Made by a program: the position numbers and the translations under genes. Shown here piece by piece: positions 1,614-61,741 of a stretch of DNA of 64,000 nt; within the stretch, counting starts at the first letter, position 1; each line of letters opens with the position of its first letter. The DNA is taken from positions 186,001-250,000 of the forward strand of contig CDLV01000019.1 of the NCBI GenBank assembly GCA_001244265.2, in the 5' to 3' direction. The notes beneath the pieces are model-generated. The model was not told the DNA's origin and ran no database searches. It saw only the letters and a list, made by a program, of their open reading frames with translations. This DNA is from Microbotryum violaceum (taxonomy: Eukaryota).

Positions 1614-4600
1614 AGGACCCCAAAAGCCCAGCCTGAGGCGCGTAGGTGCACATGCAAGAGACGGGGCACCGATCACTATCATGACGGACCATCTGGGAAC
1701 GGCGCGCCTCATCAAGGAGTGGCAGACGCACCCAGAGCGGGAGATATCGAGGAAAATACCCAGTCTCTCGTATCACTCGTGGCTCCGAAGGTTGGTGTTG
1801 GCCACGTCAATGCTTACTGTACACCAAGATAGTGGAGAAAAGGCTGACACAGGTACAATTTGGAAAATTAGCCGACACAACATGGAAGAAAATTCGCCTA
1901 TTACAGTTAACAGGGATGAAACTGGCAATCTACCCCTACAGAAAAGCGAGATCGTCGTATGCTGCACTGGTGCAATGGCAACTTCGAAGCTCATCACTGC
2001 CACTACACATGCAAGCGCGAAACTTACGGCTGCCGTAGGGCACAACTTGCCAAAAAAGAAAAGTGTGTCTGCAAGGACCAAAGTAACGTTGGCTCCCTTC
2101 TGATTTCAATCAGCATTGATTGAAATTAGTAGCTTTTTTGGCTGTGGTCCAGTGTAAGGCCAGCCCCTTCACAACTGGACTACACACAGAGCTCCCTTGC
2201 GCCTTAAATGGCTCGCTTCTGATTCCGCATCCATTGAATTTGTGCGCTTTTTTGGCTGTGTAGTCCAGCTGTGAGGGGCTAGCAAAAAACCTAACAATTT
2301 CAATCGATGCTGATTGAAATCAGAAGGGAGCCAGCGTTACTTTGGTCCTTGCAGACACACTTTTCTTTTTTGGCAAGTTGTGCCCTACGGCAGCCGTAAG
2401 TTTCGCGCTTGCATGTGTAAAATCCGCCAGAATCCCGGATTTTGGACCTCATTTGTCCACCAATTTTGGGATTTTTTGGCCAGAAAGGTCCCCAGAATGT
2501 CCAGTCCATCTACGCGCGTCCAAAGATAGCTCTAGAATTGCTTCAAATGCTCTAAAACATCTTCAAAAATCGCGAAAACGCCGTCCGGACGTTTTTCGCC
2601 CGGACCGAATCGCCGGAGCCCGCGCGCGCGTCAGCCGTTTCAGTTCTGCTTCGCCGAAGGCTCCTCACCTGCACTTATTGCCTACCTCTTCGACTATGAT
2701 TTAACGTGGCCATGGTATACATGTAACGTACCAAGAGAGGTAAGATCGATTGCAGTCACTCTGCGAAGCAGTAAGCTAGCTACGGTGAGATGTACGAACC
2801 AAGTCCAATCGACAGTTGTTCTTCTCCTATGTTGCTGGCGTCACAACTGACAGGTATCATGCCTCGTTTCAATACAGAGCAGACAAGAGAGCCGATCTTC
2901 AAAGGCGTAGCTGACGTGACGTTTCCGTCGATCGACCCAAACGGTGGGATCTTGGGCGGATGCCGTGTATTGCCTTGCTCGCAATTGCATCCGTACCTGG
3001 GCAAGAATGAACATTATTGATGAGCACTCTCTGGGCCATATGTGCGGAGCCCACAATTGCAGCTCACTTCTTTATGTCCGTCTTCGATGTATCCTATGTT
3101 TTCTGTCTTGTTTGCGGTCGAAAAGCGACTGAAGGTCCCTTGTCCTGTCCAACGAAAGGACCTCGCAACTCCTGACATGGCTTCGAGACGGGCTGCACCC
3201 ATTGAATGCACGAAGCCTCGGAGGACACTGGAGTGCATTTCACCGTGCTCGGACAATTTTGCTTTTGATGTGGGATCGGATACTTGGGAAGTCGAGGTGG
3301 TGGCGCCGTGCCTTCCCTTGAGTAGGACAACTCTGAGATGGAAGCATGGATGTGCCCGACGGTGCTGGATCAAGCTTTTCAGATCGAGCGCAAGCTGACA
3401 AGATTCGTGATGCAGAAGGGATGGGAGTCGAATAATCTGAACCTGTGAAAGAATGCTGGATCCATTTAGTGTTGCTACACGAAACCAATTGCTCAAATGA
3501 ACCTACACGACCCGGCAAGCTTTCATTTGCTGTCACAATGGCGTCGAGCAGGAAGTATTCCTCTGCTTGAGCATCGGCCTCGTTATAGGCCTGCTGAACG
3601 GCAAGCCTAGAATTGGAAGAGATGAGTTATCAGCTCAGAGGAGGCTGGTACAGGTCTCATGGCACTCAACTTACGGTGCAGCATCATTGTTAAGGCCAAG
3701 AGCAGCTAAAGAGCGAACAGCGTTTTCAACTGACTTCCACTCTTTCGGGTCCAGCACGACGAGACCTTTCTTCAAGCCACGTTGTTCCTAGGAAAAGCAC
3801 GAAAAATAATCCCAATCAATCACGCCATCGAACAGACAAACAATTCGGCTGCCTACCAACGAAATCGAGCAGCGTGTGCAAGGACGCGCTACACCCGAGA
3901 ATCCTTGAAGAGGTAGGTATATTGCTCCTCAATGAGCAATGGCGGCAGCACCTCCAGAGCCTTAACGATGAGAGGCTCGATGTCGACACCCAGATAAGTT
4001 TCCATCCACTTTTGGCTACTGATAACGATCGAACGCATGCGCTCGGTGTAATCTATATGCCGCCAGATCCTTCGACAGCGAAAGGCAGCCGGTGCCCAGC
4101 GATAGCAATTGACCGGTAACCTTGCTCACGCGCCGCAGTAATTGCTCCACGATCCTTGAACTTGTCCGTCCAAGCATCGAGCGGCCTAGGAAGAGTATCA
4201 CACTCGAGAGGCTCGTCTGTCGACCACGAAAGCTGTATCTGGGTTATCTGGGTGTCTGCAGTGGGTTGTCGAAGCGGAAGGCGAGAAGCTCAAGACACCC
4301 TCACGTCCAAGAAGGGTGCCATTCACTCATAATCATTGTCAAGGAGATCGATATTCGGATCGTTTAGATACATTTCGTCGAAGCTGGCTGAAGCGAGAAT
4401 GTAGGATAATGACGATGATGGCACAGACGACGCGACGCGGCGGAGGCAAGAGACGGCGCACTCAGACGAGACGGCTCGGTCAACCAACCAAGAGGCCTAT
4501 AATTGCAAAATCGAGTCATTAGAGCCCTTGTGAATTCGGTACCGGCCAGAGTGTTTCGCGCGCGCTCCGCACGTTCTTGAGGGTCGGCAAACTCTGGCGT

Positions 4601-4789
4601 ACCAAGCCGAACGTGGCTGAAATGGGCCCAAATTTGTCCACTGGCACCTACAGGCCTAGGACCCCACCCGCACCGGCGCACCTGGTTTGTCCACCCCCGA
4701 CTACGCGCCTTCGCGATTTTGGCCCATCTGAGGCCCACAATTTGTCCAGTCGGGCACTACGCGCCTCAGGCCGGGCTTTCGGGGGTCCT
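1614..4789. mobile_element. Internally deleted copy of the AGGACCC-TIR (P-like) DNA transposon
   Basis: Termini AGGACCCCAAAAGCCCAGCCTGAGGCGCGTAG ... CTACGCGCCTCAGGCCGGGCTTTCGGGGGTCCT. Interior is colinear with 30973-37466 (2697-3765 matches 31620-32690; 3773-4789 matches 36458-37466) but lacks the catalytic core. No matching TSD. Confidence 0.9.
2006..2417. mobile_element. Fold-back MITE flanked by TA (Tc1/mariner-type target)
   Basis: TA|CACATGCAAGCGCGAAACTTACGG ... CCGTAAGTTTCGCGCTTGCATGTG|TA with arms longer than 120 bp and inner inverted repeats. Second copy at 51240-51575. Confidence 0.85.
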
Positions 4790-4884
4790 GCCAGCCTGCG
4801 CCAGCTCGCGCCTCGGGTAGCGTCGCTCTTCCCACCGCCTCTTCCTGCTTCTTCCTACCCGCGCGCAGTAAGACGGGCTGGGCT

Positions 4885-9796: not shown

Positions 9797-12700
9797 AATC
9801 CCAAACGTGTCTTTTGTTGCTGCCAACCTGCAGTCAATCAATGAAGACCGTAAGCGTGCCTCTCTTTTCTCCAATCTCCGCTCCCATAACGCCGACGTCT
9901 TTCTCCTGAGCGAAACTGGCCGACCTTCCCCGAAAGGGTGGCCCAGTGGACTCAGGAGTGCCAAGACTTAAAGCTCTCCGCTCTTTTCACTCCTTTCAAC
10001 AATACTGCCATACTTTGGAAGAGCGACTCCGTGGTCATTACTTTTGATCCCGAGTCGCCTCCAAACACTCTTCGTGCCTCTTTCTCTTTCCCGGACCGAG
10101 TCACCGACGCCACCTTTTGTGTGGGTGATTCAAAAGTCCGGGTTGTATCAATATACGCGCCTTCCTCCGACAAGCCAGACAAAAAACGCTTCCTCTCACA
10201 CCTCAGCACCGCCCTCCGACAAGTTGTACGTGACGAACCCTCGCCGCCTGCGCTCCTAGTCGGGAGGGACTGGAATTGTGTTGAGTCCCAGCCCCTCGAT
10301 TCGGAGAACCAAAACGGAACGAATTATGGGGGTCAGGAGATGCGCGACCTTGCCACGGCCAACAATCTTTTCGACGCCTATCGGCTCCATCATCCCAAAG
10401 GACGAGCCACGACGAATCGCTCAGCGCCCGGCACGTGCCGTCGCCTTGACCGCATCTATGTCTCGCCTGATTGGGTCGACCTCTTCCATGATCACAAAAT
10501 TTGGGCTCCTGTCCTCAAATCGACGCACTCAATGGTTGTGGCACGGTTCCAACTGCCGGGCGCAATCGACATCGGTCCGGGCAAATTCAAGCTGGGTTTG
10601 CACGTGATCGAGGGCGACGCGACCTGCGAGTACCTCACCTCCATTGTCCGCACCCTTTACAACAAAGCCCTCCTCCAGACGCCCAACGATCCACCAGCAG
10701 CTTGGACGTCCACCAAACACCGCCTGCTGCCCGAGCTGCAGGCTCTGGCCCGGACTTTCGCTCGGTTCCGTCGTGGCGGGTCGGAGCAAGAGAGGGCTGA
10801 CCACTCGCGCTACGGCGCGGCCCTGCGGTCCCGCCTCGACCCATCTCTGGCGGGTCCCTCTTCCATCTTCATCCGCCTGCGCAAGTGCGAGCATCCGACC
10901 TGATCCCTTCGCTCACGGTCAACGATGTTGTTCATTCCGACCCTGATTCGATGCTTGGAGCGGCCAGCGACTACTTCGAGCGGGTCTATGAGGACCGCCC
11001 CATCGATGACGCGGCCTTGAAGGCGATCATCGACGGCCTCGCTTCAACTCGCCTCTCCCCCGCGGACTCACTCAAGCTCGAGGAAGCGTACCCGTTGGAG
11101 GAGATGACAAAGGCTCGAGAGGCGTGTAAGTCGAACTCTTCGCCAGGGCCTGACGGCCTCCCGGTTGAGTTTTATCGCGCTACGTGGCCGGCCACTGGCC
11201 CGATTCTTCGAGACGTCATCAACTCGATCCCCACCGAGGCCCGTCAGCCTGGACCTCTTCCCCGCAACACCGCCCACATCCATCTCATCCACAAACGCGG
11301 CGAGAGGGATCAGCTTTCGAACAAACGCCCCATATCGCTCATCAATGCGGACGAGCGCATCATCTCGCAAGCCCACAACCAGCGCCTCGCTCCCTTGCTC
11401 GAGTCCCTGATCGGCCCAACCCAACGTGGCTTTGTTCCGAACCGTTGGATCGGCACGAACATCGCTGAGGTTAATGTCTCATGGACCCTGGACTTCCGGG
11501 CTCAACACCCGTGTCTGGCATGCTAGCGGTGATGGACTTTGAAAAGGCTTACGATCGTCTTTCCCACCCGTACCTTGATGCAGTCCTCTGCGCCGTTGGC
11601 CTCGGCCCCAAAGCCCGCCAATGGTACCGAGCGACCTACACCAACCAATCTGCCTCGATCTTCCTCAACGGTTGGCTCTCTGCCACTTTCGACATCCTGT
11701 CGGGCGTTCGGCAAGGTGATCCTTTGGCTCCGTCTCTCTTCGTCCTGGCGATCGAAGGTTTTGCCTGTCAGATTCGATTGAGAGTCAAGGGCATCGATAT
11801 TGCGGGCCTCCAAAACGTTCGCAAACTCCTTTTTTCCGACGACGCTTGCTGCGCACTCCACAACCTCTCGGACCTCGACCACCTCAATCGGGCGATCGAG
11901 CTTTACGAACGGGTAAGTGCCAGCAAGCTCAGCAACGTCAAATCTTTCCTCTACCCCCTTGGAGCTTTTCGGGATCGGTCGATCGCCCCAGATCTCGGGA
12001 CCTGGCGTCTCAGCGATTCGCAGTTTCGCTACCTTGGTATTCAGGTCGGGGTGGAGATCGCCGAGGATGCGGGCTGGGAAGATGTCAAGGCCTTGACCAT
12101 CGCTCGGATACGCTCGATTCCGATGTACGATCTCCCATATGCAGCCAAGTGTTCGATCATCAACATCTACTGCTACACAAAGATCTTGTACTACAGCCGA
12201 TTCCTTCCCCAAGAGCGTTGTCAAGGAGATCGAGGAGGCCGCCATGCTCGCCATTCACGGTCGAGCTTCGGATGGCACTCGGCGACGTCCGAAGGTCTCC
12301 TGGTCGCGCCTCTGCACCCCTCTTGATCACGGCGGCTTCGGTTTGATTGATCTGCCTCGGTGTCTAGCAATCGATCACGCGAAGTGGGTCTTCCAGCTCC
12401 GGGCCCCGGACGGCTGCTTCACACGCCACCTCTTCGACATCCGCATCCGCCTCCAGGCACCAAACGAACCAACCCCTTTCACCTTGTCCAGACCGACCCC
12501 CAACCAGCATCGTTGCCCTTGGATTTGGATCTGGTGGGCTTACTTTTGCCATCCTCCCCCAAAGTGGGACCATGCGGTGAGAAAGACGACAAAACTTCTT
12601 CCTGCTCGTTGGGTCCGATACTTCGAAGCCTGGGCGTTGGTGACCACGCTCAATCCCCCGGAACTCTCCAAGAGCCAGAACCTCGAGCAATGGGCGACGC

Positions 12701-13346
12701 ACATACTCTATTTCTCAGCGGGCCACGGAATACAACTCTCGGTAAACCCGACGCTTTTTCGAGGGCTCGATGGCGAGGTGATGACCCCGTCTTCGTTTGT
12801 GAACGCGTCCAAACGCCACCAAGTCTTCATCTTCCCCCTTATCTTCCCCAAGGGACACCAGAAGGTATTCGATCTGCCTGAGCAACGCTGGAACGCTTGG
12901 TGGAACGCTTTGCGCAAGGTTCGCCGGGTTCACTCGGACGCCGAGGATACCGGCCACCTTCTCTCCCTGGGGTCCCTCCATCCGGGAAGCCAAGTCGCCT
13001 CCCCAACCAGCCCACATCCCAACAATTGATCTACCTCCTGTGTGATGTGCCTCTCGGAAGCACCCGAGTGCCTGGTTCACCTCGCGGTCGGCTGCCCATT
13101 TGCCCGGCGCCTCTGGTCTGCTCTGTCCCCGACCCCCACCCAGTCTTTGTGGACTTTGTATGCCCGGTCGTGTCTCGCTCGGAACGTCGACTTGTCGAAC
13201 TACGAGTCCTCTTCTTTCACTCGATCCGGAAGCTCTGTCGCCGTCGTCGATTCTCGTCGGATCTTTTGGAACCGATCACCGAAACGTAGTTCGAGGGGCT
13301 TCGAGCCTCTATCCAGGAGTCCAAGGGTCGCCTAGTGTCTCTGTAA
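9780..13346 (+). pseudogene. LINE ORF2: APE endonuclease, reverse transcriptase and C-terminal zinc finger, with several frameshifts and stops
   Basis: APE motifs AANLQSIN, LSET, SIYAP, GRDWN, RLDRIY. RT motifs SPGPDG, RPISL, DFEKAYD, GVRQGDPLAP, LFSDD, YLG. Zinc finger CVMC...HLAVGC. Confidence 0.92.
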
Positions 13347-13537
13347 GACAACAAAGGGGGTTTTAGTGGGTATGGTTGATCCTGGTTCAGGGTCAATGAG
13401 TCCTACACTACTGGCTTCTGCCAGTGTGCGTAACAGCATTCCCTCCGACTTTTCCGAAGATTTCTAGGTATTAATATAATTATGCTGTTAATGAAGTCTA
13501 TCAAATAAATAAATAAAAGACAGCGCAAGACTTACCC

Positions 13538-20807: not shown

Positions 20808-20895
20808 TGGTCTTTTCGGCTTTTGAGGCATGGATTTGACGCGCCGATTCAGGCTCGCGCGCACGGACCCTTTCTCTCCCGTGGAGTGCTATAGC
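20808..20895. repeat. Terminus of a TRGTCTTTTCGGC-ended repeat family (probable DNA transposon end)
   Basis: Near-identical to 56934-57020, partially to about 59230-59260, and inverted at 22960-22995. Confidence 0.65.
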
Positions 20896-22131: not shown

Positions 22132-22995
22132 GCTTCGACTCCTCCATAGTGCGCGCTGTTTGTGGCGTTTGTTTTAGGATGGAAGAGTCGAGTTGCAGTG
22201 ATAAGAAAAAAACCCGCACTCCGTAACAAACGGAGGGTTTTCTAAACAGGAGTTATGAACAAGTAGGGTGGGAGGGAGGAGCTCAAAAAAATGGTCGATC
22301 GGCTTTGCTCAAAGAGCGCAGGTCCGATTAGTAACTAAACACTGCAACTGACTTGGGGGATAGGGCATACCTTTGCTCGAAAAGCGCAGGGCGATGGCAG
22401 GGGAGGAAGGCGACGCGGTAGGTAGACGCGGCCAAACGACGTCTGTATACAAGGTAGCCCCATGAGTCAACTTGCCCAACAAGGACAAGGAATTTGGCAA
22501 CATGCCCAACAAGGACAGTTGTGATCCGGAATGCGAACCTTAGCTAGAAACAGTGAGCCGCGATAGTGCGAGTCCCGAAAAGTTCGCCCTTGCTCTAAGC
22601 AGTGGGTGCGATACGACCTTGCAAAGCAGCGGGTACGGCGGCTGCTTACAACGTAGTGGCAGGCTAGCTCATCAGTCCAACTGTCCAACAAGGGCAGAGG
22701 GCTTACGAGGGATGTTACCCACTTTGAGTGAGTAGAGACTGGCAGGGGGGGTGCCGGAACCACAACACGAAATGCTGAGGCGTGCGGGACAACGAGGGAG
22801 AGGGAGAGGAAGGGCCCGCGCGCGCCAGCGGGTGAGCAAGGCGGGAGGCCCAAGGGGGCCGAGAAGAGTGCGTGCTGGTACAGGGTCCAAAGAATGCGTG
22901 TTCGAAGAGTGGAGCGCGAGCGGGCCCCGTTAGGCCGAGACCAGCGCGCTTGAGCTGTCCGTGTCAAAATCTTGCAGCAAAGGCCGAAAAGACTA

Positions 22996-23180
22996 GCAGC
23001 CGACTGAGACTGACAACCAGAAGCTTGGGTCGCAAAGCTCCCAATGTCATCCCGCCCACCATCCCTGTGTATCACCAAGAAGTTCGGACTCTCTTCCGTT
23101 TAGATCAATCTCTTACGGTTTTGTTGCAACTCGAACCACTATTCCGCTACGACTCGCGCGAGTGGTCAGGAGAGTCGACC
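22996..23180. repeat. Dispersed repeat shared with 57620-57870 (decayed transposon interior)
   Basis: CAGAAGCTTGGGTCGCAAAGCTCCCAA...TATCACCAAGAAGTTCGGACTCTC...GCGAGTGGTCAGGAGAGTCGA present in both places. Minus-strand ELCDPSFW is weakly hAT-like. Confidence 0.7.
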
Positions 23181-26542: not shown

Positions 26543-27182
26543 GTTGTACCGTTCTGTTGAGGAGAGGAGGGAGGGGAGGTGGGGGGGGGGGGGAACGGGG
26601 GGACTCGGGCGACTGGGAAAGAGTGAAGGCGGTGGAGTGAAGGAGGTGGAGGGGACGCCTCGGATCGGGACGTTTGAGGTCACCGAGCCCGACAGCAGGA
26701 CGTCTCTGAACCCCGTTCATTTAGCGATATAGGCCGATTTGTGCACCGAATATCCCTATCCAAGGGATGTATTAACGCACCGCGGGGCGGCGACGAGTCC
26801 CTGAACCTCCAGTGCCCTCTATAAAGTCACACTCACACAACTATGGCCCGAGGATAGGCACTACCTCCTACTTAGCCGCAGGCGAATGACCACCGCAAGA
26901 CATGCATATGGCTAGAGACTGTAACGACAAATTAATCCACCTAGCATTCAATTTCGACTGCATTTCATTCCAATCTTCTTCTCTGTCTATCCTCATTCAG
27001 ACATATCTATTTTCGTTTCCGTTGTATAAACAAAGTCCAGGAACCCTTTCTTTCCTCACCATTCGCTTGAGACCAATCAAGCATGAGCCTTCCCGGTCTT
27101 GCGGTAGGCGCCAACCGCGCGTTCCGAATCGAGTCAGAGTTGCAGCAAAACCGGGTAAACTGGGTTGTAACTAACAAGCACA

Positions 27183-27185
27183 GTC

Positions 27186-27217
<32 letters not shown>

Positions 27218-28044
27218 TTGTTGTTGTTGTTTTTGTTGTTGTTTTTTAGGAAAAAAGGAAAAGTGGAAAAAAAAAGAGGATAGGTGAACAAGGGAAGGCG
27301 GGCGGGAAGCTCAAAACAGAGGTCTTTGCGAGGCGTAGCAAAGATTGTATTTAGTGACGTGCAACTATGACATGGGCTTTGCGAGGCGTAGCACGAGTGT
27401 CAATGAGAATTGAAGCACTTAGTGCGGTCTCGGCGGAGGTAGCCTATAGAATGCTAGGCGTCAGCTTGGATCATCCAACTAGGGCGTTCCGGTAGGAAGG
27501 GCAGTTTCGTACAAAAGCTTGTGCGGAGACTGCTGTGATGCAAGTGAATAATGAGTACGTCGTGCAACTAGCCGAGCGTAATCTGGACACTTACCTCGAA
27601 CGCGTGGCAGGGCCTGCGGGCGTCGAGGGTTTTCTGGAGGCAGCGGCTGCTGTAAATCCTGTGCGAGGGGGGCTTCGCGTGAGCAACGGATTGCTTGGAT
27701 GAGGATCATAGGGTGGTGGCTAACTGACCCTTGGCAGAGGGTGGCAGTGCTGGAGCAGCGGGCTGGCAACAGAAAGCGTCGACGGTGCGGAACCGAGGAG
27801 GAGTAAGCGGCGCGGACGCAAATACGCTTGAGGGGTGGAAAGACTCTGAGGACTCACAGAGAGGCCTAGGGATGCTGAGCGCTCCGGAGAGGCTAGGAAA
27901 GTACGCTGAGCCGCTCGCGGGGAGGGCTAGGCTCTGAGCACTCCGGGGAGGCTAGGAAAGCTGACACTGAGTCAGGGACTGGATGCACGGATGCGCGCTT
28001 GAACATTGAGTGTGGAACTCTTACCGCTAAAGCTCAACAGACAT
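27183..28044 (-). mobile_element. Solo terminal-repeat copy of the DIRS/Ngaro element, carrying three spliceosomal introns and a (CAA)n tail
   Basis: Reverse complement of 27305-28044 matches 59364-59846, apart from three GT-AG inserts and one short duplication. Ends are GTCTGTTG...CAACAGAC. Confidence 0.85.
27186..27245. repeat. (TTG)n / (CAA)n microsatellite
   Basis: About 20 imperfect TTG units seen directly. Confidence 0.95.
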
Positions 28045-28439
28045 CATGATCGTTGTTGGCGGCCTCTCTCGCCTGCGCGTGAGCCGGATTCTTGTTGTTG
28101 TCAGTGACTGTTGAACGCCAAGTAAACAAACCCGTCAGCCGGTATGAAAGGTTTAGTGGGGAATTGCGGGCTTGAGCTTATTCTCATGACCTCGGTGCTC
28201 GACAAGTCAATATTCAGCTCAGCGTCCGAACGCTCGACAAGGGAGGCGATGACCCACCTAGGACTGAATCGGACTGTCGGCGGGGGCGTGGTCTGTCGTG
28301 TCATCTGCCGCACATCAGACAGGGAGACTACACCAGGCCCATGCAATATGCACAAAACGTTTGCCGGAGTCACCTTCACCCAGGGTGCCCACTCCCCGTG
28401 TGGTACTCGGGATCCCGTTGCAGTCATTTCGGTAGAATC

Positions 28440-28600
28440 TCGGGCTCAGGAGTCGAATCGAGTCATTTCGAGCCGGGTTCTGGAGTCATTTCGGACGTAG
28501 CGGGGTAGGGTTCTGGGGTCATTCCGGACATAGCGGGGTCGAGTTCAGGAGTCATTTCGGACAAAGTCGGGTAGAGTTCGGGAGTCGTTTCAAGTTCCAT
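28440..28600. repeat. Degenerate ~30-bp tandem repeat
   Basis: Recurring GG(A/G)GTCATT(T/C)CGGAC units with GGGTT/GGGGT spacers. Confidence 0.7.
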
Positions 28601-29049
28601 CGGTTCGGGAAGGGTCAAGGCGCTGGTTTCGGCAGATTTCTCAGCGGTTAAGCGGTTCCGGATAAACTCAGTACCTCAGTGACTCAAGACTTGACTATCA
28701 GCGACGAACCATGTGGAGGGATTTGAATGGAAGACCGGGCCGGATGCGCGGATGAAAGGATGAAGGGGAATGAAAGGAGCGCAGCGGTTTGAATGGCCGG
28801 AACGATTGAAGGGATTTCGCTTCTTGTTCTTAGGCAGACCACTTCTAGGACCCAATACAGCATCCTAGCTGGTTCTCACTTTTTGGTGTCTCAAGTCTCG
28901 TTTATCATCGTTCTTCAGTCTCCGGCCTCAGCGTTTCAAGTCTCGTGTCTCATCGTTCTCCCGTCTCCGGCCTCAGCGTTCCAGTCTCGTCTCTCGGTTC
29001 TCGTACCCCTGTCTCTCGGCTCAGCTCGCCCCTCTCGTCTCTCTCGCCT

Positions 29050-30854
29050 TGGGTCTCTTAGGAGCTCTTAGGGTCCTTATCCCTTTTCTTCTCATTTTCA
29101 TCTTTGATCGACCGCTTGCTATACAATACCCAGCGTGGGATATCCATCCTTGTGCAAGTCGCCCAGGGTGCTCATCGACAGTCACGGGGAGTTGCGTGGG
29201 ATATCTTTTGGCGTACTTGTGACCGGTAAAAATCCCCTCCCGGACCTCCACCTAAAATCGACTGTAATCGGGCAGGTCGAGAATGTTCTCCGGGTCCAAG
29301 TGGGAACAGGCGGAATCACCCCGGCCTCCAGCACCCGCCCGCCCCCTGTGACTCCATCTTTCCAATGACTGCACACACCCGTGTCCGCCCAATCATCAGA
29401 CGCCGGAGCACACAAAGGCAAACATATACATCACTACCTACATCCTGGGTGTGAGCAACTGGTGGTGGATGAAGATCACCTGCGGCTTCGCCGTTAGTAG
29501 GTTTGGCGTGTTGAATGCGATCGCTGCAGTGGCCGGGCCGGTGAGGGTGAGAAAGGGGAAGGAGTCAGGTCTCTGTCTTTCTTTGCGACGGATTCAACTT
29601 ACATTAACTGTTTCCCAATTTCCATGCCGTTGCCCCATGTTCAGAAAAAGAAGGATCGCAACTTGGACATGCCCTGAGTTGCAACTTTGCCTCGAACTGG
29701 GACGTCAGGAGCAAGTGCTCCGGCTCCGGCCGCTGCCTTTCCGAAGGCAAGCTTGTGCTCGAGACTGAACACACAAAGTGTACCCTGAGTCAGCCTCTAT
29801 AATAACATCTAGTAGTAGGTATGCTGGCCCTCTAGGTCACTCCGTCGATGGACCACGCGAATCAGTGATTGCAGCACGCCATTTGGCATTCCTCGAAATC
29901 AAACGTTGTAGGCCTGGGGATCAGGATGTCTTTGGCTGTGCTTCGCTTGAAGATATAGCCACTCTCGAATGCTGACAGCGCCAAGCGCATGAAGACAATA
30001 GAATACCCAAAAATAAATCCTGTAGTCTTTGATCGCCGAGAGAGTAGCCCTGCAAGTTGTGAGTCTGACAGACAATCTGCAGTTGTTCCAAACGAAGTTT
30101 AACGTTGGACAAGACGAGCTGTCGCAACGAGCACCTGAACACTAGATCCTCGTCAAGCGAATGCGAGGAACCAGATCTGTTCAGTCCATGATAAGTGTAC
30201 TGTACTCGTTCGCCATGTTGGCAAGAGCGACTGCCTCTTTTCAAGCCAAGCTCCCAGATGCTGTCCAATGAGCAATGACTCGGGACCGTCACTCGGCGTC
30301 GGGAGCTGAGGCACGACTATAAGACACGTAAACTGGGAGAGATCGACATCGCCGCAGGGGTGGGGAACACAAATGCCACTTGTTACAATGACTGATTTGT
30401 CGGACCGACTGAGCACCGTTCGTGACTGGTTAACTACTCCCCGAGGAAGGTTGTACCATGAGCTACCAAGATGTTGATGTTCGTACACAGCTATCAGACG
30501 GAGCCGACGGCTTCCTTCCGCGCCGTTTCACGTCGGTCTTGTGCCGGCTTGTGCCAGCTGGCTGGTCTAGCGCGCGGGCGTGTGCGGGACGCCCCCCGCC
30601 AACGAGGATTACTAATCTTGTGACCGTCGCCAATTTCCCAAGCGCGCGCTCCCCGCCGCCGCCCGGGAGCCGCCCCCCGCCAACGAAAATTACTAATGTT
30701 GGGATTGTATTTCCCCAGCTCGCGCCCCCCGCCCCCCCCCCCATTTTTATTGAACAAACCTTCAGCTCTAGAGCTATAGAGAGCTTCAGGGATAAATGGG
30801 CCCGAAAAGTCCATATCTCCCAGACGCACATTGGGCTGAGCTTTCCCGGGTCCT
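29050..30854 (-). mobile_element. Decayed AGGACCC-family element (one TIR visible) with remnant coding sequence
   Basis: TIR end at 30820-30854 is identical to that at 14636-14670; GC-rich subterminal repeats at 30590-30700; broken minus-strand reading frames. Left end not found. Confidence 0.45.
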
Positions 30855-31679
30855 GCGCTGTCCTGCGACAGCTCGCTACTACAGGCCAGCCAGTGGCCAG
30901 CCCGAGGCTGACGAGCTGACGAACCACGGACCTTTTGGAAACTGGTCCCTCAGGCCTCAGGAGGCCTCAGCCAGGACCCATGAAAGCCCAGCCTGAGGCG
31001 CGTAGGTAAAATCCGGTAAAATCGCCGATTTTGGACCTCATTTGTCCACTATTTTTGGGGATTTTCGGCCAAAAAGGTCCCCAAAATGTCCAGTCCATCT
31101 ACGCGCCTCGAAAAATAGCTCTAGAATTGCTTCAAATGCTCTAAAACATCTCCAAAAATCGCGAAAACGCCGTCCGGACGTTTTTCGCTCGGGCCGAATC
31201 GGCGGAGCCCGCGCGCGTGTCAGCCGGTTCGGTTCTGCTTCGCCGAGGGCTCCTCATCTGCACTTGCTGCCTTCCTTTTTGACCCTACATCTTTCACGCC
31301 CTTCATTTGATTACTCAAGGACACAGAAGCGTCCCGTAATCCGTTGCAGCGTCGAAGAAAACAAAATCTTGCCTCAGCCTGCTGGCTCAAGTCGAAGACA
31401 CGCTCCCCGAGGTATGCAACTGAATCCAGTGGTGCGAGAGTGAGCGCGGGCATCGAGGATGATTCCAAGGATTGAATGATTTGTCGAGCATCGAGTCCAA
31501 AGAACCGAGTCGTGCCGTCAATCATATGCGTTGAATAACGGCCCTTGCTCACAACTCGTAATTCTTGGAGGACGACATTCGAGAGTAATGCGAGGGAGTC
31601 GGTCTCCGCTCTGTCACAATGATTTGACGTGGCCTTGGCATACATGTAACGTACTACGAGAGGTAAAATCGATGTCAGT

Positions 31680-34600
31680 CACTCTGCAAAGCAGTAAGCT
31701 AGCTACAGTGAGATGCACAAACCAAGTCCAATGGACAATTGTTCTTCTCCTATGTTGCTGGCGTCACAACTGACAGGTATGATGCCTCGTTTCAATCTGA
31801 AACAGACAAGAGAGCCGATTTTCAAAGGCATGGCTGACGTGACGTTTCCGTCAATCGACCCAAACGTTGGGATCTTGGCGAATACCGTATATTGCCTTGC
31901 TCGCAATTGCATCCGTACCTGGGCAAGAATGAACATTATTGATGAGCACTCTCTGGGCCATATGTGCGGAGCCCACAATTGCAGCTCACTTCTTTATGTC
32001 CGTCTTCGATGTATCCTATGTTTTCTGTCTTGTTTGCGGTCGAAAAGCGACTGAAGGTCCCTTGTCCTGTCCAACGAAAGGACCTCGCAACTCCTGACAT
32101 GGCTTCGAGACGGGCTGCACCCATTGAATGCACGAAGCCTCGGAGGACACTGGAGTGCATTTCACCGTGCTCGGACAATTTTGCTTTTGATGTGGGATCG
32201 GATACTTGGGAAGTCGAGGTGGTGGCGCCGTGCCTTCCCTTGAGTAGGACAACTCTGAGATGGAAGCATGGATGTGCCCGACGGTGCTGGATCAAGCTTT
32301 TCAGATCGAGCGCAAGCTGACAAGATTCGTGATGCAGAAGGGATGGGAGCCGAATGATTTGAGCCTGTGAAAGAATGCTGGTTCCGTTCAGTGTTGCTAC
32401 ACGAGAACAACTGCTGCTTAAATGAACCTACACGACCCGGCAAGCTTTCATTTGCTGTCACAATGGGTGTCGAGTAGAAAGCGTTCCTCTGCTTGAGCAT
32501 CGGCCTCATCATAGGCCTGCTGAACGGCAAGCCTAGAATTGAAAAAGACGTATCATCAGCTCGGACGAGGCTGGTACAGGTCTCAAGCACTCAACTTACA
32601 GTGCAGCATCATTGTCAAGGCCAAGAGCAGCTAAAGAGCGAACAGCATTTTCAACTGACTTTCGCTCTTTCGGGTCCAGCACGACGAGACCTTGGCACAT
32701 TTTGGTGCCGATCCCATCGAGGGTCCGATCTAGGTCAGCGAGGTACGAAAGCGGCTCAGCGTCCTCGGGCTCGACATGCCAAGGTTCACTAGCTGGAAGG
32801 GGCGACATCAATCAGCTTTGCTCAAAACGAAGCCACAAGCTTGGGCGACACCCACCATTGACCGGTATATCTTCCTCTAGCTGGTTGGACTTCTGATATT
32901 GTATGGTATCCCACATTCGAAGACCAAGAAGAAGCTCTTTTGCAAGTCCTGCAGCAACCAAGCTTGTGGACCGAATCTCTTCATCGCTTGGATAAGTCCG
33001 CATTGCGACGAGGTCGAGATCGTCGAGCCTGTCATACATGTGATGGTAGCCTTGACGCGAGTCTGCGGTCTCTGTCTTGAGCTTTCGCATCAGTCCTAGA
33101 AGCGCAGTAACTTTGCTTGCCGACTAAAAACCCGAAATATAAGCTTTACAAGCAGTAGCTCACGTGAAACCATGAAACAAAAGATGACTTACCTGCAGGA
33201 ATTCTAAAGCATCAAATTCTTGCACGACTTTGCGCAAACCGCCAAAAAAATGCTCGACCATCTCCGTACCATGTCGCCATGGTATGAACGCTTCTTCCGG
33301 CCAAAAGTCGCGGTAGTTCCGAATAAGGGCGATGTTTGCATTGACGACCTTTCGCATACCATCCAGGGTCTCCTTGGCAATAAAGGCCTGCGCGTTGTAC
33401 CCGGGACGATTGCGCACGAAGGTCAACCATCCCTCAAATGTTTAACAAACCGTCAATAGCATCTTAATACGTTCAATCGGCTGCAAGGACCTGTTATGTA
33501 TCGCGTCGTGAAGCTCGCCGCAGAGAAAGAGGAAGACGATGGCATCGGCATCGAATTTGCCGTCCTCGTAAAGTCGGCAAGCAAGCGCGAGAGTAGCTTC
33601 GGAGAACGCTCGATGCGTCGCATTGTCATCTTGACGATCACGTCCAATTACATCACGTAGATACAAGGTCCTCGCCGACTCTTCGACGTTGAGCAGCGTC
33701 AACAGGTCACGATATCCGATACATCCGGTGCCGCCGTATATTGCCCTGGCGCCTGAATCGCACGCGCTGCGGAGATTTTTGCTCAAGTGCTTTTCGTCCC
33801 GATTGAAGCACGTTGGAGTGTTGCCCACTTGAACGGATGCCAGTCGAATGGCTGGGAAGACTTTGTCGGGACCTGGAGATGGAATGACATGTGCGAGCTC
33901 TCGCCGACGGTTCCCCTCTCCGGTATACCCCTCATCGCCGCCAAGTCGCCCTGCCATGACGCGCTGCAAGACGCCTTCGCTTGCCGCCCCATCCGCCGAG
34001 ATGGAGGCAAGAAGATGACCTAGCCCAGCGTTGACAAGGAATTGAATAACTGATTCCAATTCATCCGCAGCCTCGGATGAGCTCGTCGAGTCGCCAATCA
34101 CGAATGCGGCAAGGTATTGGGCTGGGCAAGAGACATCGTTTGGTGCAAGCATGCACACTCGAACCTATCCACACAAGCGCCAGCAAATGAGCAATCAATC
34201 AAAGCGCTGCGCAGATATAGTCACCGACCTTGGTGCCAGCGATTGGAGGGTTCGGTCCCCGAAAGATACCCTCGAGCTCCTGCGTGGTTTCATACACGAT
34301 TGGCGGGCCAACCATGCCAACGAGCTCGTGACGGAAGATTTTCTGCCCGCCCAGGCGAGCTTCCGCTTCCTTGTCCTTCGAATAAAACCGTGTTGTCCTG
34401 ATTACTTGGCGCAGTTTCGTGTCGTCGACGTGGAGGTTAAAGGTCTTCCCATCCGAAAGGATCTTTAGGATAATGCGCTGCATGTGGGGCTCATCTAAGC
34501 CGAACTTGGGCTTTTCGAATGTTGCTCGATGTTGTCTGAGAGGTTTAGAATCGTCAGTAGCCTGAAGGAATGACGGATAGCTCAGGTCTGAAACTTGCTG

Positions 34601-37047
34601 AAGTGTGCGCATCGAGACTCCGCCGACAGTTTTTTGCACCACGCGCAACGCCGTGGGAGATGCCAGAGCCAGCGCGTGTTCAAAGTCGAGCAAAGCTTCG
34701 TCTCGCACATAGCCTCTCATGTCCTTGCCTTGTGCGTCCCGCCTATGCTTGATCACGGCGACTTTTGCCATACCTTTCAGAATGTTGGCTCCAGCCAGCT
34801 CGCCGGAAACTAAACCTTGAGCGAAACGAAGATAGACCTTGCCATCTTTGGTCCCTAAAAGTTCCTCCAGACCTTGGTGTTCCTTGAAAACCTTTGACAT
34901 CAAAGCCTCGACGGAAGCCAATCGTTTATTCGTGAACTTGATTGTGGGTCCGACAGCCCGAGGACGATGTAACGCCTGTGAGAAGGCTTTCGTGTGAAGC
35001 AGTGCCTTGCATTTGGCGCAAGACTCCAATTTCGTTCCACATTGCGACTCCATTCCGATCCTGGTACAGTTGACACTGTTCACTCGGGGTGCTGAATGAT
35101 CGTTCACCCACGTCCACTCGTTCGCTTCCAGATTGTTGATCTCACGGCGTTCAGAACGAGTCAATACACGTTTGCCAATTCTTGGGAACCTTCTCTTGAT
35201 GAGCTTTAGCCGAGATGGTGCGCCTCCGCCTCGAGCAGAGCTCTTTGAGAGGTATCGCTCTACCCGCTTGCCTGTCAGGCCGGGACACGGGGGAGAATCT
35301 TCCAGGGTTTTGCCTTGCGACCGAACAGCCGTTTCCGAGGGCGGTCGGACAGCAAAGTAGTGGTCGATCTTGCGCATGTTCGTGCACGGCGGGTTTTGAT
35401 TAATATGCCTCATGAAGCGAGTGACGCCGTGCCGTGTCTTCATCTTCTGATATGTACGACAGCGACCGCACTGTACCGTCCTGGGATTCGCAATCTTCAC
35501 GTCCGAACCTGGGCAGAGCTGCTTGACCTTCGCCTTGAATTCAGCAAATGCTGCGGGGCGAGCCTTCGAGTATTCGATGTCTTTAAGATGCTCCTTGGCT
35601 AGTCTGGCTCGTCGTGCTGTGATTGATTCCCCCGACTTCGGAGTTTCGTCGTCCGTGGTGCAATCATCGTCCGTGGTGCAATCATCGTCCGTGGTGCAAT
35701 CGTCGTCCGTGGTGCAATCGTCGTCCGTCTCGGAATCTGAGCGGAAGCATATCCCGCACCATGTCTGCTCGTCATTCTCGATCTCGGCCATCTCCTCGAA
35801 CACACCAACGTCCAAATCGTTCTTGTCTATGCCGGCAAAGGGCGCGGGCAAGTCATGGGTGAGATCTTGAGATTTGATTGCGAATGTTGCTAGTCGGTGA
35901 AACTGGCGAATGCGAGAGATATGAGCGCGACCGGCAGAAAAAGGTGGAACCAAAAGAAGTTTGGTTTCGACAACATTGATAGCCGCTGGTCCGCACGGAA
36001 GCTGTCAGCCTGTTGAACCATGCGGCCTTGCTTCGGCTCAGTGTTGAGAATTTGTAGCTCGAGGTAGTCAAATAAGGCGAGTGCCGAGTTACGAGTAATC
36101 TTGTCGATCCGAATATGCGAGAGCGAGTTGAAAACCGGCCATGTCCTTTGTTCAACATCAACACGTGCCATTGCCCAATGATTGCGAAAGCAGAGCGGGA
36201 GAAACCAGATCGATTGAGGGCGTGCTCGAACGAAAGATCGAAGATCGGCGAGAGTTCGATAGGGAACAAGTGGTGATGTGAAGGTGTATTTGTCGAGAAC
36301 ATCACGTTGAGGAGAGTCAGGGTGATGTTTTTTTGACGCGACCAAAATCGCCATGAGGTCGGATGGGAATGCCCCCTATACTTTGTCGGGTGCTGTTGAC
36401 GCTTGTACACGCGATGAAGCTAGTACGCTTGTGATGGCAACGTCCATCGCGGCTTCTCCAAGCCACGTTGTCCCTAGGAAAAGCACGAAGAATAGTCCCA
36501 GTCAATCACGCGATCGAACAAGCAAACAAAATGGCTACTTACCGACGAAATCGAGCAGCGTGCGCAAGGACGCGCTACACCCGAGGATCATTGAGGGAGT
36601 ATATTGCTCCTCAACGATTAATGACGGCAGCACCTCCAGAGCCTTGACGATGAGAGGCTGATTTTCGATGTTGACACCCAGATAACTTTTCATCCACTCT
36701 TAGCTATTGATAACGATCGAACGCATGCGCTCGGCGTAATCTATATGCCGCCAGATCCTTTCGACACCGAAAGGCAGCCGGTGCCCAGCGATGGCGATAG
36801 ACCGGTAACCTTGATTTCGTGCCGCAATGATTGCTCCACGATCCTTGAACTTGTCCCTCCAAGCATCGAACGGCCTAGGAAGAGTATCAAACTCGAGAAG
36901 CTCGTCTGTCGACCACGAAAGCTGTATTTAGGTCTCCGGGTTGTCGAAGCGGAAGGCGAGAAGCTCAGACACCCTCACGTCCAAGAGGGGTGCCATTCGC
37001 TCGAAATCATCGTCAAGGAGCTCGATATCCGGATTGTCTAGATACAT
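31680..37047 (-). pseudogene. Multi-exon Ulp1/C48-like protease, Zn-finger and P-like DDE transposase gene (stops, frameshifts)
   Basis: Protease motifs WLGEAAMD, RNHWAMARVD, FNSL, QQADSF/CGPA. Zn finger CGRC..H. Transposase motifs HVDDTKL, SADG, DEKHLSKNLR, DRQDD.A...FS, TEMVEHFFGGLR. 3' end approximate. Confidence 0.75.
35647..35727. repeat. 18-bp coding tandem repeat (TTDDDC x4) in the transposase linker
   Basis: TCGTCCGTGGTGCAATC(A/G) units; translation DDDCTTDDDCTTDDDCTTDDDCTTDD. Confidence 0.9.
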
Positions 37048-37548
37048 CTCGTCGAAGTTGGCTGAAGCGAGAGCCTAGCCTAGGATGTTGATGACGATGA
37101 TGGCACAGACGACGCGACGCGGTGGGGGAGGCAAGATACGCGCGCACTCGGACTTTTCGTTCAACCAGCCAAGAGGTTACATTGCAAATATTGAACAATT
37201 AGAGCCGTTGTTGTTGATTCGGTATAGCCCAGAGTGTTTCGCGCGCGCTCCCGCGCGCTCTTGAGGGTCGGCAAACTTTGCCGCACCAAGCCGAATGTGG
37301 CTGAAATCGGCCGAGATTTGTCCACTGGCACCTACGGGCCTAGGCCCCCACCCGCACCATGATTTGTCCACCCCCGACTACGCGCCTTGGCGATTTTGGC
37401 CCATCTGAGGCCCAAAATTTGTCCAGTCGGGCACTACGCGCCTCCGGTTGGGCTTTCGAGGGTCCTCCTCAGCCTCGCTTAGCTTGCGTGGGGTTGGGGT
37501 TAAAGCTTAAAGGCCGCTTATCAGTCTTACACAGGCTTATCCTCCACC

Positions 37549-42643: not shown

Positions 42644-43971
42644 ATAGGAAGGCATTGTCCGGGTATCGTCACATCAGCCCCTTCTTCTTTTCGTGAGCTC
42701 GGGTCGGTGTACATGCATTCACCGCTTGTCCCCCTGTACCCGCTTGTGAGAGTCTCTCAACGTGCTAGTAGTACTCGACTTCGTTTTGTAAAATACACGC
42801 CAGTTGCTGAAATGTGATACCGAATGACTCTGTGAACGCTTTATCGTTGGCGTTCACAAACAGGGAAAAGCAGGGCCAACAGGCGGTGATCTGGTGGGAG
42901 GGCAAGATAGCCTATCTCGGACTCGGTTTTGACGATATATGAAGCACGGCATTTGTCAGTGCACTTGCCACGCTTGGTAAGCTTCCTTCACGCAGGTAAG
43001 ACCTTGCGAACATTTTCCGCGATATTCACACTTTCCAGGTAGGAACAAGGCGTCGTCGCTATTGCATGACGTTACTTGGAGTGAAGCGAGCCTTGCGAAA
43101 GTTGCTCCAGGCCCGCCGACGCCGCCGTACCCATCCATCCATCCATCCGTCATTCATACCCCATACGCTACACTCTCACGCTCTCTACCCTTTGATGTTT
43201 TCTGTATAGTTATTCCACCTGATCTGGCTCGCTTGCGACCTATTCGCCTACACCACCCGCTTTCAACCGGCATCGACCCGCAGCCGCGAACCGTCACTCA
43301 ACTCGGAAGGAGCTCGACCCTCAACCCATCTCCACACTGGACTAGCGGCCAACAAACAACGCCATTATCAAACTCAACAACACAGCACCACAAGAAGCAC
43401 TATATCGACCAAATCACGACACTATAGGACCGACAGAGGAGGAAGGGAAGGAAGAAGAGGAGGAGGGGAGAGCTGTGAACTACTGGAATCCTTTGTACGG
43501 CCATTAGCCAAGCCCATCTGGATCTCCGGTAGTCACCACATGCCATGCAAGGGGAAATGTTTTTATCGATCGTCATCTGCGACAGGTCCTATGGACCTAA
43601 GCGTTGTATGTGCGAGAACCATCGTCCCAAAACCAACCGACCTCCTCATAAGCTTAAGGCCAATGCAGCCCAGACGACGCTCGAATAAAACACACAAATA
43701 CCTATACAAAAACCACTTTAAAAATGGCACATCTATTTGAACCCCAAAGGAAAAAAAACATAGCCTGGTTTCTGAATACAACAGGATCACCCAAACAAGC
43801 TGCAAGCACCCAGCAATTCCGCCAAGCCTAATCGGAACGCCGCGCAAGCACATCAGCAAAATGGCCAAACGCGCGTAAGCGCGCGAAACCTCGTAAAGCA
43901 GTCGTTAAGCGGCCTAAAGCTGCTCTTAAGCGCCCTTAACCACTCGTTAAGCCGCGCGCGCGTTAAGTGTC

Positions 43972-46005
43972 TCATGGATCCTGGGCTCCCGGGTTCAGAG
44001 CCGGTGTCCGGTCTGCTCGCAGTGATGGACTTCGAGAAGGCTTACGACCGTCTTTCCCACACCTACATCGATGCAGTCCTCAGCGCCGTTGGCCTTGGCC
44101 CGAAAGCCTGCCAATGGTACCGAGCGACCTATACAAACCAATCCGCCTCAATCTACCTCAACGGATGGCTCTCGGCCGCGTTCGATATCCTCTCGGGAGT
44201 TCGACAAGGCGACCCGCTGGCTCCGTCGCTCTTCGTTCTCGCAATTGAGGGCTTCGCCGTACAGTTGCGGTCACAAGTCAAGGGCATCGCGAGCCCGGGA
44301 CTCCCAACCATACGAGAACTTCTCTTTGCCGACGATGCCTGCTGTGCTCTCCACGACACCTCGGACCTCGACCACCTCAATCGGGCGATCGAGCTGTACG
44401 AGCGGGCAAGTGCCAGCAAGCTCAGCAACGCCAAATCTTTCCTCTACCCCCTCGGGTCATTCAGGGACCGTCCGATCCCTTCACACCTCGGGTCCTGGCG
44501 TCTCAGCGACTCGCAGTTTCGTTACCTGGGAGTGCAGGTTGGGGTGGACATCGCCGAGGATGCGGGCTGGGAGGAGGTCAAGTCCGCGACCGTCGCCCGG
44601 ATACGATCCATCCCAATGTACGACCTTCCGTACGCAGCGAAATGTTCGATAATCAATATCTACTGCTACACGAAGATTCTCTACCATAATCGTTTCATCC
44701 CAGCTTCCAAGAGCGTCGTCAAGGAGATCGAGGACGCGGTCATGATCGCTATCCACGGTCGAGCCTCGGACGGATCTCAGAAACCCCGAAGGTCTCTCGG
44801 CTGCGCCTCTGCACCCCTCTCGACCACGGCGGCTTTGGCTTGATTGACTTACCTCGGCGCCTCGCGGTCGATCACGCCAAGTGGGTCTTTCATCTTCGGG
44901 ACCCGGACGGCTGCTTCATTCGGCACCTCTTCGACATCCGCACTCGCCTTCAGGCGGCGAACGAACGCACCCCCTTTACCTTGCCCAAATCAGGCCCCAA
45001 CCCACATCGTCGCTCGTGGGTCTGGATCTGGTGGGCCTACTTTTGCCACCCTCCTCCACAGTGGGAACGCGCAGTGAGGAAGACGAAGGCCCTGCTCCCT
45101 CCACGATGGATCCGCTATTTCGAAGCCTGGGATTTGGTGACAACGCTGAACCCCCCGAACTTTCCAAGAGCCCGAATCTGGAGCGGTGGGCAACACACGT
45201 CCTCTACTTCCCAGCAGGCCACGGAATCCGACTCTCGGTGAACCCGACGCTTTTCCGAGGACCCGATGGCGAGGTGATGACTCCGTCTTCGTTTGTGAAC
45301 GCGTCCAAACGCCACCAAGCCTTCCTCTACCCTCCTATCCTCCCTCTCGGTCATCAGAGGGTTTTCTGTCTCCCCGAGCAACGCTGGAATGCCTGGTGGA
45401 AGGCGCTACGCAAGATTCGCAGGGTTCATTCGGACGCCGAAGACACGGCCCACCTCCTCTCCCTAGGTTCACTTCATCCAGGTAGCCAAATCGCTTCTCC
45501 AAATAGCCGTTCTCTCCACAATCGATCTACCGCATGTGTCATGTGCCTGTCGGAGGCTCCGGAGACCCTGGCACACCTTGCGGTCGGTTGCCCGTTTGCC
45601 CGCCGCCTCTGGTCTGCGCTCACTCCTATCCCACACCCCGACTTTGTTCAGTTCGTGTGCCCGGTCGTTTCTCGCTCGGAACGCCGACCCGTCGAGCTGC
45701 GTCTACTCTTCTTCCACGCGATCTGGAAGCTCTCTCGTCGCCGTCGATTTTCGTCGGATCCTCTGGAGCCGATCGCCGAAACGGCATTTGAGGAGCTCCG
45801 CGCGTCCATCCAGGAGTCCAAGGGACGACTGGTTTCGCTGTAACCGCCTAAGGGGGTTTTAGTGGGTATGGTTGATTTTGTTCCAAGGTCAACGAGTCCC
45901 ACACTACTGGCCTCGCCAGTGTGCTTAACTGCATTCCCTCCGTCTTTTCCGAGGATTTTTAGGCATTAATATAGATATGCTGTTAATGAAATCTATTAGA
46001 TAAAA
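43972..46005 (+). mobile_element. 5'-truncated L1/Tx1-like LINE with 7-bp TSD
   Basis: RT motifs DFEKAYD, QGDPLAP, LFADD; zinc finger CVMC..HLAVGC; A-tail. TSD AAGTGTC at 43965-43971 and 46006-46012. Confidence 0.92.
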
Positions 46006-46018
46006 AAGTGTCGCTTAA

Positions 46019-58712: not shown

Positions 58713-58872
58713 TTGACAACAGCAATTTGTCATTTGGACGAGATTCTACATGACAGACCTACACCTCATCATCATCATCGAGGTAAATTGTTTGACAACA
58801 GCAATTTGTCATTTGGACGAGATATTACATGACAGACCTACACCTCATCATCATCATCGAGGTAAATTGTTT
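58713..58872. repeat. Tandem duplication of about 79 bp
   Basis: TTGACAACAGCAATTTGTCATTTGGACGAGAT...CATCATCATCATCGAGGTAAATTGTT occurs twice. Confidence 0.9.
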
Positions 58873-61720: not shown

Positions 61721-61741
61721 ATTCCTAGAAGACGGCGACAG

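Follow-up and report, generated by a model that had tools for sequence, protein, structure and literature searches.

Retroelements should lose introns at each passage through spliced RNA, and elements that keep introns, such as Penelope and the retroviruses, have informed on the choice of template. For tyrosine-recombinase (YR) elements with split direct repeats, the replication model rests largely on sequence logic. In the window analysed here, the whole 64,000-nucleotide stretch of DNA from Microbotryum violaceum, the 5' leader of a retroelement at 59 kb has a second copy at 27 kb that carries intron-sized segments, and we asked whether these segments are introns, how the leader at 59 kb came to lack them and how the lineage transmits them. 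In the openly searchable literature, outside which the original Ngaro papers lie, we found no report of a YR element with natural introns in its terminal repeats. The word "intron" is absent from the accessible text of surveys of YR elements (PMC6681497, PMC4157794, bioRxiv 2021.08.05.455354) and from that of a fungal survey (PMC3783388).

The minus strand from 28044 to 27305 is homologous to the retroelement 5' leader at 59364-59846, with 10 mismatches in 480 aligned bases, 8 of which are transitions. We compared the two copies by MAFFT and by a scripted global alignment, and both gave the three GT/AG-bounded inserts of 70, 65 and 69 nt that the initial annotation had described, at the same coordinates. 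On the minus strand these are leader intron 1 at 27659-27728 (70 nt, GTCAGT..CACAG), leader intron 2 at 27530-27594 (65 nt, GTAAGT..AGCAG; homologous to predicted intron 1 of a sister unit, X, described below) and leader intron 3 at 27444-27512 (69 nt, GTACGA..TATAG). The 17-nt micro-exon between introns 2 and 3 (27513-27529, minus strand) and the corresponding junctions in the 59-kb element (59679/80, 59743/44 and 59760/61) were also as annotated. Each of the three indels slides by only 1-2 positions and only a single placement of each yields GT..AG, so the boundaries do not lie off GT/AG. The count of three inserts was incomplete, however, in that the alignment contains a further indel of 53 nt, which is treated separately below. 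The homology does end before the gag ATG, as had been claimed, but at a distance of 26 nt (27305/59846 to the ATG at 59873) instead of about 28 nt; the pyrimidine tract and (CAA)n tail reported beyond this end are present, and TRF found a period of 3 at 27186-27243.

GT..AG ends, a short fungal intron size and a branch-like motif upstream of the acceptor, judged by the general branch-point consensus, were found together in three of the four segments. The donor GTCAGT of leader intron 1 is also used by the intron of the host PEX13 gene. As controls we took indels from pairs that were more than 85% identical among 80 related metagenome loci. None of the 3 distinct intron-sized control indels (6 locus pairs) had GT..AG ends, compared with 3 of 4 in the window. 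These 3 indels were plain coding deletions, and intron dimorphism was not found among the 80 metagenomic relatives.

The element at 59 kb starts with its A1 repeat, the 5' leader (59364-59846, plus strand), which by alignment lacks all four segments. A gag-like ORF1 follows at 59873-61720 (plus strand) with one internal in-frame stop at 60494, and then the pol (RT-RNase H) frame at 61665-63839 (plus strand) with internal stops at 62034, 62151 and 62553. Because of the internal stops in ORF1 and pol, the 59-kb copy is defective. The pol frame (61665-63839) aligns end to end with those of its relatives; about 430 nt lie between ORF1 and RT, which leaves no room for a protease, and the pol frame closes immediately behind RNase H. 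The element thus has a pol of the Ngaro kind, RT-RNase H with neither a protease nor a DDE integrase nor a methyltransferase domain. Pfam gave no family at E<=0.01 for the element ORFs of the window. The RT ORF matched 16 proteins at E<=0.001 among 8000 candidates scored, the best of them bearing names from Sporobolomyces johnsonii (identity 65%, whole query covered) and Microbotryum (identity 77%, 73% of the query covered), which makes the host a microbotryomycete fungus. This intronless copy is the single coding copy visible in the window, which stops at base 64000, before B1-A2-B2 and any recombinase gene, with A1 alone inside. For a 115-aa open frame at the window end, longer proteins yielded no homologue and the downstream ORFs of the relatives no match.

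Metagenome contigs scanned with an RT alignment yielded 152 relatives. We kept the best 80, at 26-36% identity, and compared 30 related loci of at least 4.5 kb with themselves for repeats. The full A1...B1-A2-B2 pattern, a distant A1/A2 pair together with a close B1/B2 pair, was present in 4 of the 30 (L001, L003, L022 and L063); three more showed the distant pair only and several the close pair only. In all three loci inspected (L003, L022 and L063), a C-rich spacer and then B come directly after A2 and not after A1, and B contains a ..CTGCAA.. motif 22-31 nt from its end. The spacer motif that follows A2 in these three relatives was matched right after the A repeat of the 27-kb copy. A1 and A2 differ in length by at most 23 nt in all four distant relatives that have both copies, suggesting that intron dimorphism is not general to Ngaro elements. 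The relatives' pol frames gave weak matches to RVT_1, RNase_H and RVT_3, and only the RVT_1 match of P0012 (30.3 bits, cut-off 29.6) reached the curated cut-off. Integrase-family matches occurred in 3 of the 12 downstream ORFs scanned (E 0.0078, 0.0043 and 0.00043), all of them below the curated cut-offs. The downstream ORF of L001 gave no Pfam match and no recombinase in a PDB sequence search, which returned chance ribosomal-protein matches only; its C-terminus presumably resembles a recombinase box. Judging from the repeat architecture of the relatives and the RT kinship, the coding element is probably of Ngaro type and would have a recombinase gene.

The copy at 27 kb had been interpreted as a solo A+B remnant, and the A2-type C-rich spacer after its A repeat, a B-type motif near its end and contigs of the empty site all bear this out. 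The unit, 916 bp on the minus strand, consists of an intron-bearing A repeat, a C-rich spacer and a B-type tail, and it reaches to 27129 (27129-28044), beyond the limit of 27183 given originally. The empty site, a joint from 27128 to 28045, was found in DNA contigs at depth 102 in run X1, which behaves as pure-culture DNA with single-copy contigs at a depth of about 60, and at depth 5.5 in run X16, which also behaves as DNA; 7 other letters lie between the two flanks, and the exact 3' boundary at 27129 is given as this joint places it. Since the flanks are joined without the 916 bp in two DNA runs, the solo is a discrete A+spacer+B unit. Exon 1 of its A repeat (27729-28044, minus strand; 316 nt) opens with about 50 nt that are this family's version of the terminal motif M1, described below, and contains a degenerate 27-nt tandem array at 27859-27964. 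The rest of the unit (27129-27304, minus strand) comprises the C-rich spacer, the pyrimidine tract, the (CAA)n tract at 27186-27243 and a B-type motif, M2, with its core at 27140-27150; the core TTTTGCTGCAA stands 12 nt before the end of the solo at 27129.

The solo lies about 580 bp upstream of the start of PEX13 (assigned by Pfam), within repeat-rich DNA. A spliced PEX13 RNA contig (minus strand) stops at 26566, a short way upstream of the ATG near 26548, which places the solo outside the PEX13 mRNA in the organism of that run. A long C-rich tract stands immediately upstream of this RNA end (26566-26640, minus strand), and single-copy DNA depth stops at 26593, the PEX13 promoter region adjoining repeat DNA. 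With 20 gag, pol and downstream-ORF queries, tblastn gave matches only at 59.8-63.8 kb of the window, indicating that the DNA upstream of the solo holds no recognizable coding element. In DNA contigs at depth 63-71, 28396/28397 is joined to 29146 across 10-11 other letters, which points to a further insertion polymorphism, of 749 bp (28397-29145), in the repeat-rich DNA upstream of the solo.

The window contains further units of this kind. A sister family is represented by unit X, an A+B solo at 56934-57872 (plus strand) in which one intron is predicted at 57382-57511 and the last lies at 57582-57657. The A+B solo unit Z, at 22150-22999 (minus strand), belongs to a third family and has a GT-AG intron at 22303-22370, which is skipped in X17 record 18 and spanned by X1 DNA record 2. 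Unit Y, of the X family, is broken about 80 nt from its start into a 5' fragment at 20808-20894 (plus strand; loose contig end at 20885) and a 3' fragment at 23008-23178 (plus strand; loose contig ends at 23008 and 23122); in X17, a loose contig end at 23029 is consistent with a copy related to unit X from which the last intron has been removed. Intron sequence is present in all four solo units or fragments of the window. Because intron 2 of the 27-kb solo is homologous to the predicted first intron of unit X, the leader introns appear to be older than the split between the families. Within the first exon region of unit X, 103 nt are duplicated in tandem (57001-57207).

All units start with a conserved 31-nt M1 block that is 84-94% identical between families and has the core TTTTGCTGCAA; the blocks lie at 59230-59260, 56938-56968 and 20812-20842 on the plus strand and at 22963-22991 on the minus strand. 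Cores of the 3'-end motif lie 12-49 nt before the 3' end of the unit, at 27140-27150 (minus strand) and at 57813-57823 and 23119-23129 (plus strand), and each unit is bounded by direct copies of a 25-50-nt motif, one at the A start and one at the B end. In local alignments the A start at 28044/59364 is a diverged M1, scoring 40 against unit Z (reached in 0 of 500 shuffles), 32 against the M1 of 59222-59295 (0 of 500) and 25 against unit X (3 of 500). The A start therefore shares its ancestry with the unit starts of X and Z, and the homology between the 27-kb and 59-kb copies begins at the true terminus of the element. We had also considered the motif blocks upstream of A repeats as B repeats, in a B-A-B unit; against this, the A start is itself homologous to the blocks. 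The shared terminal motif could be a recombination core, a terminal redundancy or a promoter. Neither Rfam, at gathering thresholds, nor ARAGORN returned anything (0 matches and 0 tRNAs), so the motif is not a known RNA gene.

Weak M1-like sequence lies directly upstream of the solo (28045-28130, minus strand; score 24 against the M1 of unit X, 1 of 500 shuffles) and may be the 5' stub of an older A repeat. The downstream flank of the solo, considered as the remainder of this older repeat, had no similarity to units X or Z or to the solo, and this reading was dropped as unsupported. Upstream of A1 of the 59-kb element, the stretch 59226-59363 (plus strand), with the M1 block at 59230-59260 and a 31-nt tandem array at 59297-59364, may likewise be the 5' stub of an A repeat of another family; the array ends exactly at the first base of the full element. 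Three A-type starts are broken 55-115 nt past the motif core by another unit or element (28045/28044, 59363/59364 and 20885-20894), which suggests a preferred site of nested insertion near the start of resident A repeats.

The fourth segment without a counterpart in the full element, of 53 nt (27324-27376, minus strand), begins with CC, a dead donor, and ends with AG. Its indel was aligned at 27393 to 27341, is flanked by a 17-nt direct repeat along which it slides by 17 nt, and has no GT/GC..AG placement. The segment is the positional homologue of the last GT-AG intron in units X and Z. In these units the exon before the last intron ends in ..GCAAAG and the 3' end of the intron repeats those 8-17 letters; the solo has an equivalent repeat and an AG end at exactly the matching place, but a CC start. 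From these correspondences we read the 53-nt segment as a fourth intron that has an inactive donor in the solo and was removed from the forerunner of the 59-kb copy; for this one segment, slippage between the repeats could also account for the loss. The repeat pairs at the last leader intron are 27377-27393/27324-27340 (minus strand) in the solo, 57573-57581/57649-57657 (plus strand) in unit X and 22371-22387/22303-22319 (minus strand) in unit Z, and the two copies co-vary within each of the three families. Such repeats could permit removal by slippage besides splicing.

Read depth bears on how common the two states of the leader are; only bins with cover enter this evidence. In X1 DNA, positions inside introns 1 and 2 had depths of 670-1279, and the exact intron-1-less joint was found in one contig at depth 60. 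Contigs across the intron positions in X1 thus stand at 11-21 times single-copy depth, where summed contig depths are not equal to copy numbers and the runs stem from several coded organisms. The initial annotation had named a single-copy host transcript captured once by the element as a competing possibility, and this fails at such depth. In X16, intron-bearing contigs were at about 3 times single-copy depth and the intron-less joint was absent among the matches listed. Run X19, taken as RNA from its spliced PEX13 contig, had the intron-1-less joint at depth 300 vs 4.9 inside intron 1 and 15.7 inside intron 2; its organism differs from that of X1, and the spliced joint could stem from intronless DNA copies in X19's organism. 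X19 cover falls from 205 to 10.6 just upstream of 28024. Among the matches listed, the joint evidence covers intron 1 (X1 and X19), with none for introns 2 and 3. A variant with a 67-nt deletion (27612-27678), which takes in the 3' end of intron 1 together with some of exon 2 and is not bounded by GT/AG, was present at depth 369 in X1 and also in X16. Copies with this deletion look like a multiplied subfamily unable to splice intron 1, and their depth of 369 indicates that intron-bearing copies have multiplied. The flanks of the solo are multi-copy in DNA as well, with bins at depth 435-1040, similar to A; the X1 tail bin 27122-27422, part of which is masked as low complexity, had a depth of only 97.

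Taken together, these data are best explained if the intronless leader arose by reverse transcription of spliced RNA. The 59-kb copy lacks all four segments exactly at the exon junctions, suggesting that its A1 was made from a spliced transcript; the exact loss of three or four leader introns is the signature of this process and the principle of the DIRS-1 reporters described in the accessible text of PMC7192593. The element would be a Ngaro-type microbotryomycete element in which the A repeat is a 5' leader with three canonical short introns and a donor-mutated fourth, and the A1 of the 59.4-kb copy would be the product of reverse transcription. Because the intron-bearing state is multi-copy, because a non-spliceable variant has multiplied and because the state is shared by diverged families, the lineage appears normally to transmit the introns, and intron-bearing A would be the ancestral and predominant genomic state. 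The simplest route would have unspliced RNA as the usual template and spliced RNA as mRNA, with the 59-kb copy as an occasional processed copy. The indel boundaries, the homologies, the joints in DNA and RNA contigs and the split direct repeats of the RT relatives are observed; the choice of template, the function of the spliced RNA and a recombinase gene past the window end are what we infer here. We give an even chance to this reading as a whole, in which the leader introns are inherited in the lineage, reverse transcription usually copies unspliced RNA, and the defective 59-kb copy came from a spliced one.

Other accounts have to be weighed against it. Along the lines of the initial annotation, daughter A1 copies might regularly be made from the spliced 5' end of the RNA, with an unspliced A2 as the reservoir of introns and the solos derived from A2. 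The sole visible coding copy does have a fully spliced A1, all four solo units or fragments in the window do carry intron sequence, solos formed by crossing over within the long exon 1 would keep every intron, and the single-copy intron-1-less joint fits one coding copy in that genome. Such a cycle requires, however, that of two identical sets of introns in one RNA only that of the 5' copy be spliced, and in all four distant relatives with both copies the A lengths lie within 23 nt of each other; we consider it unlikely. It is also possible to suppose that reverse-transcribed copies are all intronless and that intron-bearing A+B units spread at the DNA level, as small circles that a recombinase excises and integrates or as passengers of larger duplicated repeats. 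This would account for multi-copy flanks on both sides of the solo at a depth (435-1040) near that of A, for the precise flank-to-flank joint and for the lack of an intron-bearing coding copy in the window. Homologous introns nevertheless persist in three diverged families of common unit architecture, and the downstream flank of the solo has no similarity to the units; we also know of no Ngaro precedent for a purely DNA-level spread of solos, and regard this account as about equally unlikely.

The remaining accounts concern the origin of the difference itself. If the A+B units were an independent family of non-coding transcripts, a spliced one could have been joined to a 5'-truncated retroelement by template switching. 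It is true that the homology stops 26 nt before the start of ORF1 and that the units outnumber coding copies in the window, but Ngaro elements normally carry an A repeat immediately before ORF1, the units agree in their spacer and B motifs with genuine Ngaro A2-B2 regions, and the homology starts at the terminal motif of X and Z, which is a DNA terminus and not necessarily an RNA 5' end. Because the shared 5' boundary is a conserved unit terminus, we rate such a capture as very improbable. Chance, or deletions at the DNA level that mimic intron loss, can draw on one of the four indels, which has the 17-nt flanking direct repeat, has no GT..AG placement and could be explained by slippage. Three independent indels with unique GT..AG placements and branch-like motifs, set against none of three control indels in related loci with GT..AG ends, leave this account a practically negligible probability.

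If we return to the preferred reading, with unspliced RNA as the usual template, a further step can be considered. In retroviruses and LTR retrotransposons the unspliced RNA is the genome and the spliced RNA the message, and the leader carries the splice donor. These differ from the present case in element class and repeat structure, and the division between RNAs is only proposed here. With reservations, and while leaning against it, we entertain the idea that the Ngaro lineage has built terminal-repeat introns into its replication strategy, either through an intronic cis element that restricts copying to unspliced RNA, for which the retroviral packaging signal downstream of the splice donor is the model, or through an A2 that escapes splicing and re-seeds the introns. 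A candidate for such a cis element is the box GTTGCACG followed by GTACT-like letters, which occurs in solo intron 2, in the solo homologue of intron 4 and in intron 1 of unit X. Counted post hoc, 3 of the 5 matches to GTTGCACG in the window are inside predicted leader introns, in two families (27358-27365 and 27561-27568 on the minus strand, 57408-57415 on the plus strand). Window-wide, the 5 matches vs 2.85 expected are not significant (14 of 100 shuffles reach 5), and the longer pattern was matched once.

If the replication-strategy reading were true, the intron state of A1 and A2 would be a direct natural test of the hypothetical split-direct-repeat model. An A repeat with three or four introns, present in the genome in intron-bearing and exactly spliced copies, is in effect a natural reporter; the intron states of A1 and A2 in each copy would reveal which segment of RNA templates each repeat, and whether spliced RNA is excluded. 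A link between introns and genome defence is known, and the present case may bear on the reason why basidiomycete transposons carry introns. In Cryptococcus, the accumulation of mRNA needs introns, according to the accessible text of PMC3744415, and PMC5851062, as far as its available part goes, is a review on introns in that yeast.

Compared with known systems, the 59-kb element resembles Ngaro elements (A1-ORFs-B1A2B2) in having ORF1 and then an RT-RNase H pol, and in lacking a protease or integrase between the two or behind them. It also resembles them in the split direct repeats of its RT relatives and in the order A, spacer, B of the solo, for which the isolated AB repeats of Ngaro elements reported from Cafeteria in the accessible part of PMC8547959 can be compared. 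Unlike known Ngaro elements, it has spliceosomal introns in the A repeat, missing from one copy, and a 25-50-nt motif common to the A start and the B end; its recombinase would lie beyond the window. The closest parallel to the leader introns is Penelope, in which, as the available text of PMC2377424 describes, genomic copies keep a short intron that follows closely on the transcription start, most transcripts have it spliced out, and a reporter loses its expression without it, a dependence offered there as the reason why the intron is kept. Penelope differs in its unrelated RT class, in its mechanism of integration and in having one intron, as opposed to three or four here; moreover, the introns described here are in a repeat that occurs twice per element. 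In the DIRS-1 work, the accessible text (PMC7192593) reports that retrotransposition of a YR element removes the intron from engineered reporters, and that unspliced cDNA arises when the cassette is near the 5' end. Those introns are artificial, reverse-oriented and assayed in Dictyostelium, whereas the introns here are natural, sense-oriented and conserved between families.

Other repeats were noticed in the window. A LINE-like element with Exo_endo_phos and RVT_1 matches is present in two copies (9890-13513 and 43776-46007, plus strand) that are about 81% identical over 2 kb. The region 34202-36419 (minus strand), with a 601-aa open frame without a Pfam family and a neighbouring frame with a sub-threshold Peptidase_C48 match (E 0.00088), may be another mobile element. 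Repeats at 2417-4810 recur in pieces at 31006-32693 and 36454-37488, and an exact-like 79-nt tandem duplication (97% matches) is found at 58713-58872.
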